From assembly GCA_037189525.1 (NCBI GenBank), contig JBBCJC010000003.1, forward strand, positions 128,001 to 192,000: a DNA stretch of 64,000 nt. Reading direction: 5' to 3'. Shown piece by piece: positions 1 to 8,408 of this stretch. Under the pieces are notes generated by a model. The model saw only the letters and a program-made list of their open reading frames with translations. It had not been told where the DNA came from and made no database searches. The DNA comes from Gemmatimonadales bacterium (lineage in GTDB: Bacteria > Gemmatimonadota > Gemmatimonadetes > Gemmatimonadales > GWC2-71-9). Within the stretch, counting starts at the first letter, position 1, and each line of letters starts with the position of its first letter. The position numbers were made by a program, and so were the translations under genes.

Positions 1-938
1 AGGATGACGGGCAGCTGCCGCCCGACTTTGCCGATCCTCGTCTCTTCCTGCCGTTCTATGCGCGGGATCGCGCCCTGCGGGACGTGGTACGCAATGCCGG
101 CGGCGCGGTGCTGCTGAGCGGGTACGGCGCCGACAACTATCTCTCAGGAACGTACGACTTCCTGGCGGATTGGGTCGCGCGCGGCCGGATCAAGGATGCG
201 TTGGGCGAGCTGGTCAATCTCGCGGTGGCGTCGCGCCGCTCGTTCTGGGGACTCGGCATCGATCACATCCTGGTGCCGCTCGGGCCGATGTGGTTCAAGC
301 GCCGGCGGGCCATTCGGGGTCGCGACCTGCCGAACTGGTTTTCGCCGGAGCTGGTGGCGGAGCAGCGTCTGGACGAGCGGATCCTGACCGGAAACGCCGA
401 TGGCGCGCCGGGCGAGATCTACGCTCGCCTGCAGGCCGAGGAAATCGGCAGCATCGACCTGGCGCTGGAGCGTGGGGTGTTCGAGGAGGGGATCGAGGTT
501 CGCTATCCGTTCCTGCATCGGCCGCTGGTGGAATTTGCGCTGCGGCTGCCCCTCAAGCTTCGCTTCCGGCCCAACCGGGCCAAGTGGATCCTCCGCGAAG
601 CCATGGGCGATGCATTGCCCGAGGTGGTGCGGAACCGCCAGGGCAAAGGGGCCATCGACGGGCGGCTCATCTGGTCCTTTCAGCAGCACTATGGAATGCT
701 CGAACGCCTGGTGGAAGGCTCTCACTTGGCGGAACTAGGGTACGTGAATCGCGAGCGCCTCAAGCAGGCATTGGATCAGGCCCGTCGCGGTGCGACGGAA
801 TCGGTTTCGAAGCTCTTCTTTACGCTCTCGCTGGAGATGTGGTTTGCTGTGCGTTCAGGGCGGTGGGTGCGACAGGTAGCCCAGGCGCCAAATATCGTTC
901 TAAATCAACCTGTATCATACCTTTTTCAGGAGTTGTAG
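1..938 (+). CDS. Lasso peptide cyclase (asparagine synthetase-like macrolactam synthetase), 5'-partial
   Basis: The frame is open from position 3 to TAG at 938. It has Asn-synthase C-terminal motifs VLLSGYGADNYL, EVRYPFLHRPLVEFAL and KWILREAM..LPEVVRNRQGKG. A lasso precursor follows immediately. Confidence 0.85.
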   Translation, partial: DDGQLPPDFADPRLFLPFYARDRALRDVVRNAGGAVLLSGYGADNYLSGTYDFLADWVARGRIKDALGELVNLAVASRRSFWGLGIDHILVPLGPMWFKRRRAIRGRDLPNWFSPELVAEQRLDERILTGNADGAPGEIYARLQAEEIGSIDLALERGVFEEGIEVRYPFLHRPLVEFALRLPLKLRFRPNRAKWILREAMGDALPEVVRNRQGKGAIDGRLIWSFQQHYGMLERLVEGSHLAELGYVNRERLKQALDQARRGATESVSKLFFTLSLEMWFAVRSGRWVRQVAQAPNIVLNQPVSYLFQEL

Positions 939-939
939 C

Positions 940-1059
940 GTGTCTAAGCTTACGTATGTCAAGCCGTCGGTGACCAAGATGGGCTCCGTGGCCGAAAAGA
1001 CCGAGGGCGGTTTCAGGGCAGAGATCTTCGAGATCTTCACGATGCGTGGGGCGCTCTGA
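940..1059 (+). CDS. Lasso peptide precursor, MSKLTYVKPSVTKMGSVAEKTE-GGFRAEIFEIFTMRGAL (39 aa)
   Basis: Hand-translated; absent from the ORF track. AGGAG RBS at 928-932, GTG start at 940, TGA at 1057-1059. The leader matches the lasso YxxPx(L/V)xxxGxxxxxTx consensus; the core starts with Gly and has Glu at position 9. Confidence 0.9.
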   Translation: MSKLTYVKPSVTKMGSVAEKTEGGFRAEIFEIFTMRGAL

Positions 1060-1091
1060 TTCTGGCTGGCTGGGAATCGATGTGAGTAAGA

Positions 1092-1121
1092 GAGCGTTCA
1101 CCACGATTGTGGTGGACGCTC
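1092..1121 (+). terminator. Stem-loop after the precursor gene (terminator or mRNA-stabilising hairpin)
   Basis: GAGCGTTCACCAC-GATT-GTGGTGGACGCTC forms a 13-bp stem with one G:U pair; the U tail is weak. Confidence 0.55.
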
Positions 1122-1201
1122 GACCCCTTTCCACTTGCCCTCCCGTTCCAAACTGCGCCCGATCCGATAGATTGATAGGGTGACCCAAATACAATATTGC
1201 G

Positions 1202-3760
1202 ATGACCCGCGTTCGCGACGCTCTAGAGCAAGGCACTAGGGCGCTCCGTACTTGGATGTCTAACGGCGGCATTGTCGCTGCCGTTGCCATCCTTGGCGGG
1301 TTGGCCTTTCAAGCCGTCGCTTGGGCGGCGCCTGGCGTGATTACGGCGCGTGCTTACCGCCTTAACATGCTCCTGTCGAATCTCCTGTTCGCGGCATTCT
1401 GGCTTCGAGCCATTCGGAGTCTGCCGCTTGGCGGACGTATTCGGCCGGCCGCGTTCGTAGTTTTTGCAGCCGTTGTTGTAGGCTTGGCCGGGAGTGTGCT
1501 TAGCTCATTCAGCGGCCTTCGAGGCGAGCTGATGCTCGTTGTCGGCGTACTTTATTGGGTCGCCGGGCCCCTCCTCGTCTGCGCGCTGTTGATTTGGCCA
1601 CGTGTATTGAATCGCCACATTCGCCACCAGTACTTGGTCATTGACGTCGGCATCATTGCAATTGCCGTAGTCCTGTTCATCTGGTATGTCCGAGTCGGTC
1701 CAGCGGCGAGTGTTCGCGGTTCGATGTCGTTTGAGGACATGGGCGTCCTTGTGACATCGAGTTTGTTGCTGGCAGGAATAAGTCTCGCTGTTCTCCGACG
1801 GCCAACGCCGGAGTACTCAGTGCCCTTCATGCTCGTCGTGCTTTGGACGGCGGTCATGTTTACCGGCAACTTCGGGCTTTCGTTGTTTGCGGTGCCGGTT
1901 CACTCGATGCAGTATTGGGCAACCCTCTTTTCGATTGGAGGTTTTCTCCTTCCGATTCTTGCTGCAGAGTCACTCCGTATCCGCTACTATCGGGCTCCTG
2001 ATGCTAAGGCCGTCGAAGGTGCCAATCCTATTCCCTGGTTTGCCGTCCTTGCGATCGGTGGCTTCGTCCTCAAAATCGGCATCGAGCAGCTGTCCACTGG
2101 GGTAGGGCTCATCGTCATCGGGGCTGTGGTCACCATGCTCCTGCTCGTGATCCGGCAGGCCATGACGATGCGCCACAACGCCGAGCTCCAGGCCGAGCGG
2201 GCCAATCTCCTGGCGGACGCCAAGATCGCCGCCATGGTGCGCCACACCTCGGACGTCATCATGGTGGTCGACGAGCAGCTCATCGTCAGGTACGCATCAC
2301 CCTCGTCCGAAGCGCTTTGGGGGCGGGCCGCCAGCGTTCTGGTGGGACAGGAGCTGACCACGCTGGTCGAGGCTTCGAGCCGGCGCGAGGTCACCCGTCT
2401 CCTGTCCGAGCGGCTGGCCCGTCCCGGCCAGACCGATCTGGCGCGGGTCCGCGTTCCCGGACCCGACGGCAGTTCGCGCCGGATCGAAGCGGTGGCGGTC
2501 AGTCTGTTGCACGAGCCGTCCGTGCACGGAATCGTGATCACGATGCGCGACCAGACCGAGCGGATCCAGCTCGAGGAACAGTTGGCGCAGGCTCAGAAAA
2601 TGGAGGCCGTCGGGCAACTGGCCGGCGGGGTCGCCCACGATTTCAACAATCTGCTGACCACCATTCTCGGCCATACCGAGGTCGGGCTCGATCTGCTGAC
2701 GGACGACCACCCGGTGCGTGAAGATCTCACCCAGATTCGCCGCGCCAGCGAACTCGCGGCCTCGCTGACCCGGCAGCTCCTGGCATTCAGCCGGAAACAG
2801 GTCGTCGAGCCGAGACTGGTCGACGTGGGCATCTCGCTGGATCAGGTGGTCCGCTTGCTGCGCCGCCTGATCAAGGAACATGTCGAGATCAAGCTGGAGG
2901 TGTCGCGCGATCTGGGGCAGGTGCGGGTCGATCCGTCGCAGCTGGAACAGGTCGTCCTCAACCTGGCCGTCAACGCTCGCGACGCGATGCCCGATGGCGG
3001 CCTGCTGACCATTCAGGCGCGTACGGTGATCGTGCCGGGTCCGCTCGCCGATGCGGTGATTCCGCCGCCGCAGGGCCGGTGTATCGTGGTCGAAGTCGTC
3101 GATACCGGAATGGGGATGGACCCTGCAACCCAGGCGCGCATCTTCGAGCCGTTCTTCACCACCAAACCGATCGGCCGGGGAACCGGGCTGGGTCTGGCCA
3201 GCGTCTATGGAATCGTGAAGCAGAGCGGCGCCGGCCTGGTGGTGCGGAGCGCGCCCGGGAAGGGCAGTACCTTCTCGGTCTACTTTGCCTGGGTCGCTCC
3301 GGAACCCGAACCGGCGACGCCAGCGGCGGTTGCCCCGAGCCGCGAGGGCGCCGCCCTGCCGCGATTTGCCGCGACGATCCTACTGGTCGAGGACGAGACC
3401 GCACTCAGGGAAATTGCGCACAAGGTGCTGGCGCGCGAGGGCTATCGCGTGCTGGTGGCCGCCGACGCCGAGGAAGGGATCACTCTGGCCGAGACCGCGC
3501 CGTTCCCGATCGACATGCTGCTGACCGATGTCGTGATGCCGGGGATGAACGGGGTCGAGCTGGCCCGGCGCCTCCGCAGCAAACGTCCCAACCTTCGCGT
3601 GTTGCTGATGTCCGGGTACCCGGGCGATGACCTGGCCGGCGAGCTCCGCGACCATCAGCGCTTCCTCCGCAAGCCGTTCACGCCGTTCGTTCTGCTGGAG
3701 CATGTCCGGGCCGCGCTGGCCGGTCTCTCGGATCCGACGGCGGTCGAACCGGACCGATAG
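1202..3760 (+). CDS. Membrane-bound hybrid sensor histidine kinase (multi-TM, PAS, HisKA, HATPase, REC)
   Basis: About 9-10 hydrophobic segments in the first 320 aa, then a PAS domain, H-box AGGVAHDFNNLLT, N-box NLAVNARDAM, G boxes DTGMGM and GTGLGL, and a receiver with LLVEDE and TDVVMPGMNG. The start may be ATG at 1256. Confidence 0.93.
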   Translation: MTRVRDALEQGTRALRTWMSNGGIVAAVAILGGLAFQAVAWAAPGVITARAYRLNMLLSNLLFAAFWLRAIRSLPLGGRIRPAAFVVFAAVVVGLAGSVLSSFSGLRGELMLVVGVLYWVAGPLLVCALLIWPRVLNRHIRHQYLVIDVGIIAIAVVLFIWYVRVGPAASVRGSMSFEDMGVLVTSSLLLAGISLAVLRRPTPEYSVPFMLVVLWTAVMFTGNFGLSLFAVPVHSMQYWATLFSIGGFLLPILAAESLRIRYYRAPDAKAVEGANPIPWFAVLAIGGFVLKIGIEQLSTGVGLIVIGAVVTMLLLVIRQAMTMRHNAELQAERANLLADAKIAAMVRHTSDVIMVVDEQLIVRYASPSSEALWGRAASVLVGQELTTLVEASSRREVTRLLSERLARPGQTDLARVRVPGPDGSSRRIEAVAVSLLHEPSVHGIVITMRDQTERIQLEEQLAQAQKMEAVGQLAGGVAHDFNNLLTTILGHTEVGLDLLTDDHPVREDLTQIRRASELAASLTRQLLAFSRKQVVEPRLVDVGISLDQVVRLLRRLIKEHVEIKLEVSRDLGQVRVDPSQLEQVVLNLAVNARDAMPDGGLLTIQARTVIVPGPLADAVIPPPQGRCIVVEVVDTGMGMDPATQARIFEPFFTTKPIGRGTGLGLASVYGIVKQSGAGLVVRSAPGKGSTFSVYFAWVAPEPEPATPAAVAPSREGAALPRFAATILLVEDETALREIAHKVLAREGYRVLVAADAEEGITLAETAPFPIDMLLTDVVMPGMNGVELARRLRSKRPNLRVLLMSGYPGDDLAGELRDHQRFLRKPFTPFVLLEHVRAALAGLSDPTAVEPDR

Positions 3761-4623: not shown

Positions 4624-7600
4624 GTGCAAGATTTCCGGTCGCGAACCGTCGCCTCTTCGTCCACGGTGTGCGCGGCGTCCACCTGCGCAGCTCACGGCGG
4701 GAGGGGTGGGCCGGAATCGGTCACCGTGCATTGGCTACAATGGAGGCCGTCTCTGGCACAGGTTCGCGTGTCGCTGTCATCACGATACGATCCCCGTCGC
4801 GTTGCCGGCGTGGCGGGGCGGGTCGTCAGTGCGCTGGGCCTGCTGGGTCTGGCGGGATGGCTGATCGACTCGCCGGCGCTCGTGCGTCTTCTGGACGGTT
4901 ATCCGCCGCTGGTGCCGAACGCCGGTATCGCGCTGGTGGGGGCCGGCCTCGGTCTGACCGGCCTCGAGCGGGATCGGGGCGAGGTGGCGAGGCTCGGCGC
5001 CAGCATCGCGCTCCTGATCGGGATGCTGACCTTTGCGCAGCATGTATCGTCGCTCGATCTCCGGATCGACGGGATCTTTCTGCCCCGCGACGGCGGAGAG
5101 CTCGTCACCGGTCGCGATCCGGGGCGGATGGCTGCTGTCTCCGCGCTGTCGCTGACGTTGGCCGGCATCGGGCTCCTGGCGCTGCTGGCCGAAGCGCGCA
5201 GCAGCACACTGGCGATCCTGGCGGGCGTGGCCGGGGCTACCGTCGGAACGTTAGGCGGCACGGTGGTGGTCGGCTACGCTACGGGCGCCCTCACCGATCT
5301 TCGGCATGGCATCGTGGCCGGCATGTCGGCCTACGAATCGGTTGCGTTCCTGCTGCTCGGCTTGGGGATGGTCGGATATGCCTGGGAGCACGATCGCCCG
5401 GTTCGCTCGCTGCCGTCGTGGCTGGCGCCGGCCGTCGGGGTTGGCGGACTGACGACGGCTCTACTGGTCTGGAAGGCGCTAACCAGTCTCGAGGGCGATC
5501 GGCTCGATGACCGGCTCGGGGTCGAAGCGTCGGTGGTGCGGCAGCGGGTGGCCGTCGAGATCGACGGGCTGGTCAAGGATCTGGACCGGTTGGCGCGGCG
5601 CGCCATCCGCCTGCCGGCGTTCTGGGAAGTCGATGCGCAGGCAGCGCTGCGGGAGGGCAGTGTCTACGCGGCTGTCGGGTGGGTGGGTGCCGACGGCACC
5701 GTGCGGCGGGCGGCTCCGACGACGGCGGCGCCGATGATTGCGGAGATCGTGAAACAGGGCGTGACGCCGGTGGCCGATACTGTGCGCTTGCTGCGCTATC
5801 CGGCGCAGACGGTGTCGGCCGGGTTGCTGCAGGACGGCCGGTTCCTGGCGCTCCGGGTCGCTTCGTGCGACGAGGACAGGTGCGCAGGCGACATGGTCGG
5901 TTTTTTCGACCTGGCCGCGGTGCTCAGGTCCGGTCTCTCGGCGCCGCGCCGCGAAATCTGCCTCTCGATTACGACCGGTGGCCTCGAGCTGCTGGCTGAC
6001 GACCGGCCCGAATGTGTGTTCAGTCGGGGCGCATCGGCGTATCTGGCTGTCGGCTCGATGTCGTGGACGATCACGGCCGCGCCGACCACGGCGATGATGG
6101 CGTCGGCCGGATCGGCGTTGTCGGCGGTGGTGCTGAGTCTGGGCGTCGTGGTGAGCGCGTTGCTGACGGTGAGTCTGCGGCTGGCGCAGCGATCATGGGG
6201 ATTGGCGCGCGAGGTGGAGCGGCGGCAGGTCACCCGCGCGCTGGAGACCGCGACGGACGGGCTCTGGGAGTGGGACCTGCCGGACGGCCCGATGGCGCGC
6301 CGGGCGATGTGGCGCGGACTGGGTTATGCCTTTTCGGAAACGGACCGCGCGGGATGGGAGGCGCTGATCCATCCGGACGATATCGACGGCGTTCGACGCG
6401 GCGTCGACGAGTATCTGCGCGGCGCGGCGGAAACGCTGAGCCTCGAGTATCGGATTCGCGACGCGCGGGGCCAGTGGCACTGGATCATCGATCGGGCCCG
6501 GGTCACCGAGCGTACCGGGTGGGGCGCCCCGCGACGCATGCTCGGCATCCATGGTGACGTTACGGAGCGGCGTCGCGCGGCGGATCAGGTCCGGACCAGC
6601 GAGGAGCGGTTTCGCGCCATCTTCGACAGCGCCTTCCAGTTTCAAGCCCTGCTCGATCTCGAGGGGCGCCTGCTGCTCGCCAACCGGACCGCACTCGAGT
6701 TTGCCGGTGTGCCGCTCGACGCGGTGCGCGGCAGCCGGCTCTGGGAAACTGCCTGGTGGTCGGAGGCGGATGAGGAGGGGCGGGCCCGGCTGATCGATGC
6801 GTGCCGTCGCGCGGCCGATGGAAAGACGATCCAATATCAGGACGAAGTCACCGGCTCGGGAGGCCGCCGCGCGACGATCGAGTTTTCGGTCAAACCGATT
6901 CGTACACCCGACGGATCGGTGGGACAGCTGCTGGCCGAGGGTCGGGATGTTACCGAGCGAAAGCGGGCGGAGGATGCGCTCAAGGAGCTCGATACGTTGA
7001 GTACGATGGGGCGACTCGCGGCCCGGGTTGCGCACGAGATCAATAATCCGTTGGCCGGGATCCAGAACTCGTTCATGCTGATCAAAGACGCGGTCTCACC
7101 CGATCACCCCTACCATCGGTACGTCGGGGCCATCGGTCGCGAGATCGATCGGATCGCGAGCGTGACGCGTGAACTGTACGGTCTCTACCGCGCCGAGCAT
7201 GCGAACAAAGAGCGCACCTCGGTGGCAACCGCCATCACCGATGCGGTCGAACTGCTCAAACAGGTCAATCGGGCCGCGGACGTCGAAATCAGAGCGGACA
7301 TCGCGGGCGCGCCGGCGATCATGCCGTTTCCCGATGCGCTGATTCGGCAAGTGGTCTTCAACCTGGTCCAGAACGCCGTGGAGGCCTCGCCTCCGCGCGG
7401 CATCGTTTTCGTGACGGCGGATGTCGTCGACGAGGGCGGGAAGCGATGCTTCCGGCTGGCCGTCCGGGATCAGGGCGACGGAGTGCCGGATACGCTCAAA
7501 GAGCAGATCTTTCAGGATTTCTACAGCACCAAGAGCGGACTCAGAACCGGCGGGATGGGGCTCGGGCTCTCGATCGTCCGGAGCTCGGTGCGCGCGTTAG

Positions 7601-7686
7601 GCGGCGAAATCGACATTCGTGAACCCGATGGAGGCGGCGCCGAGTTCGTGGTGCGCCTTCCGATCAATGAGGAGGTGTCCGTATGA
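4624..7686 (+). CDS. Membrane sensor histidine kinase with multiple TM helices and two PAS domains
   Basis: TM region, PAS motifs (DGLWEWD..IHPDD..EYRIR; FRAIFD), H-box VAHEINNPL, NLVQNA, DQGDG and GMGLGL. The true start may be downstream, e.g. GTG at 4768. Confidence 0.9.
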   Translation: MQDFRSRTVASSSTVCAASTCAAHGGRGGPESVTVHWLQWRPSLAQVRVSLSSRYDPRRVAGVAGRVVSALGLLGLAGWLIDSPALVRLLDGYPPLVPNAGIALVGAGLGLTGLERDRGEVARLGASIALLIGMLTFAQHVSSLDLRIDGIFLPRDGGELVTGRDPGRMAAVSALSLTLAGIGLLALLAEARSSTLAILAGVAGATVGTLGGTVVVGYATGALTDLRHGIVAGMSAYESVAFLLLGLGMVGYAWEHDRPVRSLPSWLAPAVGVGGLTTALLVWKALTSLEGDRLDDRLGVEASVVRQRVAVEIDGLVKDLDRLARRAIRLPAFWEVDAQAALREGSVYAAVGWVGADGTVRRAAPTTAAPMIAEIVKQGVTPVADTVRLLRYPAQTVSAGLLQDGRFLALRVASCDEDRCAGDMVGFFDLAAVLRSGLSAPRREICLSITTGGLELLADDRPECVFSRGASAYLAVGSMSWTITAAPTTAMMASAGSALSAVVLSLGVVVSALLTVSLRLAQRSWGLAREVERRQVTRALETATDGLWEWDLPDGPMARRAMWRGLGYAFSETDRAGWEALIHPDDIDGVRRGVDEYLRGAAETLSLEYRIRDARGQWHWIIDRARVTERTGWGAPRRMLGIHGDVTERRRAADQVRTSEERFRAIFDSAFQFQALLDLEGRLLLANRTALEFAGVPLDAVRGSRLWETAWWSEADEEGRARLIDACRRAADGKTIQYQDEVTGSGGRRATIEFSVKPIRTPDGSVGQLLAEGRDVTERKRAEDALKELDTLSTMGRLAARVAHEINNPLAGIQNSFMLIKDAVSPDHPYHRYVGAIGREIDRIASVTRELYGLYRAEHANKERTSVATAITDAVELLKQVNRAADVEIRADIAGAPAIMPFPDALIRQVVFNLVQNAVEASPPRGIVFVTADVVDEGGKRCFRLAVRDQGDGVPDTLKEQIFQDFYSTKSGLRTGGMGLGLSIVRSSVRALGGEIDIREPDGGGAEFVVRLPINEEVSV

Positions 7687-8408
7687 GCGAGCGAGGCCAG
7701 ATTCTTCTCGCGGACGACGAGGAAGTGTTCGGCGCATCGACCGCGGATCTGTTGCGGCGGCAGGGCTACGGATGCGATGTCGTTCCGGATGGGGGTACCG
7801 CCCTGGCTGCCGTGGGGCAGGGGCAGTACGACTTGCTGATCAGCGATCTCGAAATGCCCGGGAACGAGGACCTGACCCTGGTACGGCAGGTGTCCGAACG
7901 GGTGGGCGGGTTGCCCGTCATCATCCTGACCGGGTTTCCCTCCACCCGGTCGGCGATTGCCTGTATCGAACTCCCGGTCGTGGCCTATCTCGTCAAACCG
8001 GTTGCGTTCGATCAATTGCTGAGCAAGGTCGAGGCGGCGGTGGCTCGCTTTCGGTCGTACACCGCGATGCGACGGACCGAAGAGCGGCTACGAGAGTGGA
8101 ATCGCGAAGTCGCGACCGTGGCGGCGCCGGGGGCGGGCGGGGGCCCGGAATCGATCGACGCTTTTTTGACGCTCACGCTGCGCAACGTCATGGGATCATT
8201 GACGGACCTTGGGGAAATGAGTCGCGCGCTGGCGCAAAAACAGCAGGGGCCGCATGCCTGCCAGCTGGTCAACTGTCCGAGGGGGTTGCAACTCCAGGAG
8301 GCGGTACGCGAAACGGTCCAAGTGCTGGAGGAAACCAAAGGCGCTTTTCGCTCCAAGACACTGGCCAACTTGCGACGACAGTTGGAGGTGCTGCTCGATA
8401 CCAACTGA
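7683..8408 (+). CDS. Response regulator (REC plus atypical C-terminal domain)
   Basis: ILLADDE, SDLEMPG, IILTG and YLVKP motifs; ATGA overlap with the kinase stop codon. Confidence 0.9.
   Translation: MSERGQILLADDEEVFGASTADLLRRQGYGCDVVPDGGTALAAVGQGQYDLLISDLEMPGNEDLTLVRQVSERVGGLPVIILTGFPSTRSAIACIELPVVAYLVKPVAFDQLLSKVEAAVARFRSYTAMRRTEERLREWNREVATVAAPGAGGGPESIDAFLTLTLRNVMGSLTDLGEMSRALAQKQQGPHACQLVNCPRGLQLQEAVRETVQVLEETKGAFRSKTLANLRRQLEVLLDTN

Follow-up and report, generated by a model that had tools for sequence, protein, structure and literature searches.

A candidate lasso peptide and sensor kinase cassette conserved across a genus of Gemmatimonadales

In agrBDCA of Staphylococcus and comQXPA of Bacillus subtilis, a processing enzyme, a peptide and a polytopic kinase are encoded in this order on one strand; both the peptide and the N-terminal membrane domain of the kinase are variable, the cytoplasmic part of the kinase being conserved (PMC10482373, PMC4008528); ComP has mostly 10 predicted helices and a variable N-terminal domain (PMC4008528). 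Among lasso peptides, the MS-271 and humidimycin clusters contain a histidine kinase (MslG/HumG, with the regulators MslR/HumR; PMC7168211), siamycin I and sviceucin bind the sensor kinases FsrC and VanS (PMC11872507), and clusters of the astexin, sphingopyxin and benenodin type encode class II peptides, lack an ABC exporter and carry a recognition module after the biosynthetic genes (PMC9266682). Morphosins were proposed as signals with no receptor identified (PMC11371967), the lasso clusters of marine Gemmatimonadota were counted and assumed to be antibacterial (PMC11316326), and inverted repeats were noted after lasso precursors, native regulation being termed largely unknown (PMC5974421). 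The function of exporter-less, isopeptidase-type lasso peptides was called enigmatic (PMC9266682), and the question of how they benefit the producing cell arises for all exporter-less lasso peptides without antibacterial activity. In this study, we report a lasso operon followed by a hybrid kinase at the start of a stretch of 64,000 nucleotides (the window; positions 128001-192000 of contig C3 in the Gemmatimonadales genome G000), the operon being read further upstream on the same contig.

The locus is a B1-B2-cyclase-precursor operon with intact catalytic motifs and, genus-wide, a hybrid kinase behind it. Judged from the sequences, it is a real genus-wide cassette whose receptor bears the marks of adaptation to a variable ligand from outside. 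We put at roughly 0.55 the probability that the lasso peptide is the ligand of its cognate kinase; the linkage of the two in nearly all relatives surveyed suggests a private signal rather than an antibiotic. No pairing of a lasso peptide with its own sensor kinase was found in the literature searched, most subscription journals and supplements being outside its coverage.

The five-gene locus and its distribution

The window start cuts into a complete lasso operon, B1 and B2 lying upstream of it (Table 1). The reading frames of B1 and B2 and those of B2 and the cyclase overlap by 4 bases each, and the precursor starts 1 base past the cyclase stop. The C-terminal half of the cyclase, open reading frame (ORF) 3-938, matched Asn_synthase of Pfam with an E value of 6e-29, and the best NCBIfam model for the whole protein was NF033535 (E 2e-57, 195 bits), whose cut-off of 525 was not reached. 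The ATP loop SGGLDSS is found at residue 248 and the AsnB-type N-terminal Cys is absent. Inspection of the sequences showed intact catalytic motifs in B2 and the cyclase as well as in the kinase and its receiver. The locus has the components of a class II lasso cluster, namely an RRE, a leader peptidase with Cys and His, and an Asn-synthetase-like cyclase with its ATP loop adjoining the B genes.

The precursor scored 18.5 bits against NF033521, just under the cut-off of 19, and 20 of 22 orthologues match this model. All 22 precursors show the class II features (YxxP leader, Thr at -2, a small residue 1, Asp/Glu at 7-9), with Y6, P9, T12, G15 and T21 of the leader and G23, E31 and R36 (core G1, E9 and R14) invariant. 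Core positions 11-12 are almost fixed and ring positions 2-8 vary freely; the cores have 15-21 residues and at most one Cys each, hence no disulfide pair. Since G1 and E9 are invariant and disulfide pairs are lacking in the cores, the product is predicted to be a class II lasso peptide of 15-21 residues with a nine-residue ring.

Table 1. Features of the lasso-kinase locus (window positions unless contig C3 is named).
Feature	Position	Strand	Basis or remarks
Palindrome GGCAA-N4-TTGCC upstream of B1 (putative activator site)	C3:126260-126273		motif conservation
B1/RRE, 99 aa	C3:126385-126684	+	NF033536 36.8 bits (below cut-off 80); matches lasso PqqD models
B2 leader peptidase, 129 aa	C3:126681-127070	+	NF033537 91.1 bits (cut-off 33, passed); Cys69 and His101
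Cyclase, 623 aa	1..938 (window part, residues 313-623); C3:127067-128938	+	Pfam Asn_synthase, NF033535
Precursor, 39 aa	940..1059	+	GTG start; AGGAG at 928-932; residues 1-22 form the leader, which contains YxxP and a Thr at -2
Core, 17 residues, GGFRAEIFEIFTMRGAL	1006-1056	+	predicted Gly1-Glu9 ring
Hairpin behind precursor (putative terminator or mRNA stabiliser)	1092..1121	+	best 45-nt fold -24.5 kcal/mol, z -3.6
Promoter-like element TTCCAA-16-TAGATT before kinase (putative own promoter)	1146..1173	+	conserved motif
Hybrid kinase, 852 aa	1202-3760	+	Pfam cut-offs passed for PAS, HisKA, HATPase_c and Response_reg
Membrane sensor, ~10 helices, hypervariable outer face	1202..2161	+	hydropathy; AlphaFold model pLDDT 80.5
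PAS domain	2225..2563	+	PF00989 E 7e-11; PF08448
HisKA (His479 in AHDFNN) and HATPase_c with N, G1 and G2 boxes	2612..3286	+	Pfam, motifs
Receiver domain (Asp776) and kinase end	3377..3760	+	PF00072 E 6e-19

An earlier note on this DNA had described the maturase, the peptide and a polytopic kinase as adjacent and co-oriented, with no ABC exporter or isopeptidase after the precursor. Both observations held, as the three ORFs lie in that place on the + strand, neither an isopeptidase nor a TonB receptor was found behind the precursor, and a motif scan, the only search made for ABC-ATPases, gave no such ORF in 22 of 22 loci. The neighbourhood survey, set beforehand, also bore out that the kinase is syntenic with lasso clusters in relatives: the precursor and kinase genes stand side by side on a single contig in 16 of the 22 genomes of the genus (G000, G001, G003-G012, G016, G017, G020 and G021), kin among them not being independent in such counts, and the precursor is directly followed by the kinase in G023 of a neighbouring genus as well. 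A cyclase of 48-90% identity was present in 19 of 40 relatives, that is, 18 of 21 of the genus and G023. Kinase orthologues keep a precursor wherever the locus is assembled, the exception being an orphan paralogue in G015, and no assembled locus holds a precursor without the kinase.

The loci of G002, G015 and G019 are interrupted by contig ends, and in G014 (84% complete) and G018 (76% complete) neither lasso part nor kinase was seen. Two apparent kinase-less counter-examples were rejected: the C-terminal half of the kinase is present at the contig edge in G015, and the contig of G019 stops 340 nt past the precursor, beyond the promoter-like element, with no kinase found elsewhere in that assembly (87% complete). 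G013 (97% complete) lacks B2, cyclase, precursor and kinase and keeps the promoter and B1, its B1 region being 95% identical in DNA to that of G008; the remnant (L234 / L250; G013:C7, about 103969-104344) consists of the promoter palindrome and a shortened B1.

The survey of metagenomes covered 35 loci; each of the 6 whose cyclases were closest carries the cyclase-precursor-kinase unit, and 4 of them are distinct and new. When genomes of the order (401) and of the phylum (401) were searched, a close cyclase turned up solely in this genus and G023; these tallies include the unpublished G221, on which no claim rests, and the family tally of 301 includes the unpublished G270. The sensor was absent from all 80 distant cyclase loci, of which 38 had B1 or B2 matches and 1 of those 38 any kinase match. 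In the 301 genomes of the family the sensor profile found 9 strong and 68 weaker places, and none of 24 loci around other sensor-family members (23 of the 68 weaker places and 1 more) had lasso genes, GGDEF proteins being encoded in 18 of the 24.

This synteny is one inherited linkage kept long, not 17 events. Kinase and lasso operon could then be neighbours without a common function, separate transcription units inherited together, as the hairpin and the promoter-like element between them, the single linkage and the chance that G013 lost both parts in one deletion would allow; but the flanking genes change on both sides among genomes and the five-gene core stays constant across linked cyclases that have diverged to 46-57% identity, and we regard such an association as extremely improbable.

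The membrane sensor of the linked kinases

The first ~330 residues of the kinase had no Pfam match, and no significant one was found for 15 members of the sensor family. The sensor model had no Foldseek match at E<=0.001 (best E 0.035); its residues 41-264 align with chains of the G-protein-coupled receptor (GPCR) type at Z 8-11.6, below the mark of ~13 for helical bundles, and a root-mean-square deviation of 3.7-7.4, and a 7-helix GPCR-like arrangement may be present. At E<=0.001 the family, which has no name, has 656 relatives in a set of representatives clustered at 50% identity, and its domain is mostly fused to GGDEF, GGDEF-EAL or kinase domains (50 representatives scanned). Its nearest clusters in the Atlas were unnamed actinobacterial proteins (0.93-0.94); MASE4/MASE3 (0.82-0.84), the closest ones with a name, are a lead only. 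A literature search on membrane-associated sensors listed nothing pertinent to it. The linked kinases form one clade in a quick tree (SH-aLRT 83), with the orphan copy of G015 (L052:6197-8596, G015:C27) as sister; the latter has a sensor remodelled in the same way as the linked ones and no receiver domain. In G005 (L033:6505-7727) an IS3-family element with inverted repeats splits the sensor of the kinase and leaves the lasso genes intact, and this genome is possibly a signal-blind producer.

For the comparison of domains, we chose six independent close pairs of linked kinases out of 8 and five unlinked GGDEF pairs out of 12. Excluded were pairs with a common member, the deep G215 pairs, the kinase pair G311/G100 and those of G322, in which the open frame ends early and the domains after it cannot be compared; G005 did not enter the comparisons of proteins. 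PAS identity minus sensor identity was 0.21, 0.21, 0.15, 0.01, 0.36 and 0.11 in the linked pairs versus 0.02, -0.06, -0.10, 0.03 and 0.07 in the unlinked ones (p 0.018, with small n). The sensors of G000 and G021, for instance, are 74% identical versus 95% for PAS. With the topology taken from the structure model and the positive-inside rule, the outer helix halves of 19 linked sensors were less conserved than the inner ones (0.26 vs 0.40), whereas 18 unlinked sensors had no outer deficit (0.62 vs 0.60). The 19 linked sensors have lost or changed Asp 115, Tyr 118, Asp 223 and Asp 241, which 68-96% of the unlinked members of the family keep, and Asn stands in place of Asp 223 in 19 of 19. Because these family-wide polar residues are lost or changed, we take the sensor pocket of the linked clade to have been remodelled.

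In eight close pairs, the synonymous divergence (dS) of the sensor was higher than that of both flanks in 6, equal in 1 and far lower in 1. In 19 of 20 linked kinases the sensor had a lower G+C content at third codon positions (GC3) than the cytoplasmic part; among 20 unlinked proteins this was so in 5, by at most 0.03. Since dS is raised and GC3 lowered, the sensor's behaviour is consistent with that of an exchanged cassette. As read from the alignments, the sensor shows the pattern that would be expected of the receptor for a variable ligand.

A variable ring and a fast-changing receptor also fit an arms race. The peptide would then be directed at relatives, either as a weapon of narrow range or to jam their signalling, and own or foreign peptide would reach the kinase as an alarm or an autoinducing cue, in the way that nisin is sensed by NisK. 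The broken sensor of G005 beside intact lasso genes and the orphan sensor of G015 agree with this explanation, as does the inhibition of the foreign kinases FsrC and VanS by siamycin I and sviceucin (PMC11872507). Nevertheless, neither an ABC exporter nor an immunity gene was found in the 22 loci, and exporter-less, isopeptidase-type relatives are mostly without antimicrobial activity (PMC9266682), so that a weapon appears distinctly unlikely. The Cys pairs and tailoring genes typical of antibacterial clusters were likewise not found.

Regulatory elements and related clusters

The hairpin behind the precursor has a z below -2 in 21 of 22 loci despite differing sequences; a consensus terminator scan omitted it, as it is without a T run. 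TA[GC]ATT occurs in 20 of the 22 precursor-kinase intergenic regions versus 0.6 expected from shuffles, mostly with TT at -35 spacing, and the element of the window was not picked by a sigma-70 consensus scan. A relaxed form of the palindrome stands 90-137 nt ahead of B1 in 17 of 18 loci. Both motifs were derived from the same loci, and these counts express conservation and are not independent tests. As hairpin, TA[GC]ATT element and palindrome are all conserved, they suggest that the kinase is separately transcribed and that the lasso operon is activator-dependent. A genome-wide regulon of the palindrome was rejected, perfect sites not being enriched (6 vs 1-21 at other spacings), and when 17 loci matching the genus pattern were inspected, most matches were coding; the pattern did expose the G013 remnant. 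The sigma-54 consensus has 10 nt between GG and GC; the palindrome has 9, and this interpretation was rejected as well. A second palindrome-like element, TAGGGCC-N4-GGCCCTA, lies farther upstream of B1 in G003, G007, G010, G017, G006, M158, M159, G008 and G001, and is degenerate in G000.

Homologues of a receiver/AraC protein are present in 20 of 22 genomes of the genus, mostly unlinked and without Pfam match (L038:5306-6106, L251-L265). The protein has a receiver-like fold (Z about 5) and an AraC helix-turn-helix (Z about 8), and is a candidate for the output of the kinase relay. At 4624-8408 the window encodes another membrane kinase, which has two PAS domains, and a receiver protein whose C-terminal half is unannotated; as a cognate output this pair was rejected, because it is present only in G000, G021 and G005.

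In the nearest outgroup clusters of the order, the precursor is followed by an S9 isopeptidase-like gene in 13 of 13 and by a gene for a TonB-type receptor in 12 of 13, which is the module known from astexin-type clusters (PMC9266682); the set holds 13 of the 15 clusters found, G033 having been read earlier and G221 left out. In a second lineage of clusters, a soluble PAS-only hybrid kinase stands directly behind the precursor (L165, L168, L169, L181 and G624), often with a membrane kinase and an OmpR-type regulator before B1, and these kinases group apart from the linked clade. By its gene content, the slot behind the precursor in related clusters appears to be that of a peptide-recognising module; because isopeptidase/TonB clusters, PAS-only kinases and the linked kinases all occur there, we read it as repeatedly filled by sensing genes in the phylum. 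The pair of S9 peptidases upstream of the locus was rejected as cluster isopeptidases: one, when tested, scored 210 of 400 on NF033523, and the pair is 20-29% identical to linked isopeptidases and retained in genomes without a cluster.

Other clusters were observed beside these. In G344 (L198:12277-14673) a kinase belonging to the sensor family lies divergently upstream of an isopeptidase/TonB-type cluster. The second lineage comprises L165, L168, L169, L181, L246, L164, L166, L173, L178 and L190; these clusters are flanked by the upstream kinase and OmpR-type regulator, by the downstream PAS-only kinase or by both, and have cores with acidic tails. The genome G000 itself holds a second lasso-like cluster of low G+C (0.52-0.56) at L248 (G000:C2:327045-334330), with an apparently fused B1-B2, a cyclase-like gene and an 871-aa S9 peptidase, in which no precursor was identified, and L187, a distant lasso-like cluster, has three similar polar precursors in tandem.

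These regulatory features bear on another explanation, in which lasso production is under the control of the kinase, a pathway-specific regulator responding to another variable cue, and the peptide has a different job. The dedicated palindrome ahead of B1 and the sister lineage, with its membrane kinase and OmpR-type regulator upstream and PAS-only kinase downstream, are in its favour, as are the Streptomyces class I clusters, where a kinase and response regulators raise production (HumG/MslG, PMC7168211), and the absence from our tests of ring-sensor co-variation beyond descent. It leaves unexplained that the outer face diversified and pocket residues were lost in the linked clade only, and that the cluster is without exporter or immunity gene; we hold it to be unlikely.

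The PAS-only kinases behind precursors of the sister lineage may also point to a peptide that stays inside the cell and modulates the kinase from the cytoplasm or within the membrane. The export problem would then disappear, and resistance mutations to class I lasso peptides map to the ATPase domain of a kinase (PMC11872507). The cytoplasmic domains and inner helix halves are nonetheless conserved though the peptide ring is highly variable, which makes an intracellular action very doubtful.

Weighing of the signal hypothesis and comparison with known systems

Several observations weigh against the peptide as a signal read by its own kinase. The check proposed by the earlier note, co-variation of core and sensor, did not succeed beyond shared descent. 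The sensor, kinase-core and cyclase trees are largely congruent, and the ring-sensor similarity correlation, corrected for kinase and cyclase (partial Mantel, r 0.51-0.53), was equalled by the B2 control (0.54 vs 0.53 for the sensor; B1 0.09); with kin not independent, the test was rejected as proof of co-evolution. G004 and G006 have 6 of 7 ring residues in common and sensors just 30% identical, M158 and G006 have 1 of 7 in common and sensors 50% identical, G012 and G020 have two ring residues exchanged and unusually similar sensors, and the block of low identity covers precursor and sensor in G000/G021 and the sensor alone in G003/G010. In these comparisons, ring-sensor co-variation could not be separated from phylogeny. 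The dN/dS of the sensor (0.11-0.30) indicates no positive selection at the level of the domain, and relaxed constraint could be the source of part of its divergence. No response regulator is present in the conserved five-gene unit, the receiver/AraC gene being divergent and adjacent in 4 loci only (G007, G017, G023 and G010) and probably in 2 more at contig ends, and no lasso genes occur within the 16 kb read around the orphan kinase of G015. The PAS-only kinase of the second lineage means that the linkage needs no membrane receptor. Gemmatimonadota is a diderm phylum, and the nearest named cyclase records are from Gemmatimonadaceae and Gemmatimonadales; the host is probably diderm, which leaves the route from cell to cell unexplained, as no export route was seen in the 22 loci. 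Of the pheromone sensed by the membrane domain that the earlier note had proposed, the sensing part is favoured by a sensor pattern that fits a receptor for a variable ligand, and the release part lacks an export route.

The peptide as a private signal would work as follows. In lasso biosynthesis, B1/B2 cut off the leader and C closes the ring, and here they would yield a Gly1-Glu9 class II lasso peptide in which core residues 9-14 (E-x-[MF]-[ST]-x-R) may be the fixed scaffold for threading and processing and ring residues 2-8 the variable message. The peptide would leave the cytoplasm by an unlinked route and bind a periplasm-facing pocket of the sensor with its 10 transmembrane (TM) helices, and the signal would cross the conserved inner half of the sensor and the PAS domain, reach the His479-Asp776 relay and finally act on a regulator encoded at another site, for which the receiver-fold/AraC protein, divergently upstream in one subclade, is the candidate. 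The kinase would probably be expressed from its own promoter and the lasso operon from an activator-dependent one, making an autoinduction loop possible, and lineage-specific pairs of peptide and sensor could serve as private channels.

A bolder version, to which we give slightly less than even odds, would see here the first cognate lasso receptor: a genus-wide agr-like system, belonging to an uncultivated and probably diderm lineage, whose remodelled 10-TM sensor with a 7-TM GPCR-like core reads a threaded peptide of variable ring. Its channels would be specific to lineages, and it would include signal-blind mutants such as G005 and orphan receptors such as that of G015. It would have replaced the isopeptidase/TonB module, implying that exporter-less lasso peptides in general are signals. 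For the question of what exporter-less lasso peptides do for their producers, the cassette offers about 20 natural peptide/receptor pairs for testing. If the signal hypothesis is true, lasso peptides would join the chemistry of bacterial peptide signalling and agr-type logic would reach a probably Gram-negative phylum; a large unnamed family of membrane sensors would gain its first ligand, and protease-stable, orthogonal signal/sensor pairs would be available for engineering.

With respect to known systems, the nearest related cyclases in the order belong to isopeptidase/TonB clusters, whose isopeptidase, TonB receptor and sigma/anti-sigma pair are absent here, an inner-membrane kinase standing in their place. 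The MS-271 and humidimycin clusters differ by disulfide-bearing class I peptides, ABC exporters and two response regulators, the ligand of the kinase being unnamed in the available part of the source (PMC7168211); the locus has no class I disulfides, ABC exporters or response regulators and falls outside this type. Siamycin I and sviceucin, as far as described in the source, act on foreign targets, which are not cognate receptors, by inhibiting the cytoplasmic part at micromolar concentrations (PMC11872507). The unnamed family of ~10-TM GGDEF, EAL and kinase sensors has the same domain, and the linked clade alone is without the conserved outer polar residues and hypervariable in their place.

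The agr/comQXP-like layout read by the earlier note stood in its gene order, which is that of the systems named at the outset, and in its variability. It did not extend to the regulator, to the hairpin and own promoter-like element before the kinase, or to the kinase itself, a HisKA-PAS-REC hybrid from another sensor family. The enzymes are those of lasso biosynthesis, with no homology to AgrB/AgrD or ComQ/ComX, the host is probably diderm, and the peptide gene is not part of the hypervariable block in every case; the signal would be a threaded lasso peptide. Because homology and a response regulator are lacking, the cassette is not a member of agr/comQXP, and by its sequences we consider it a system that would work like them.

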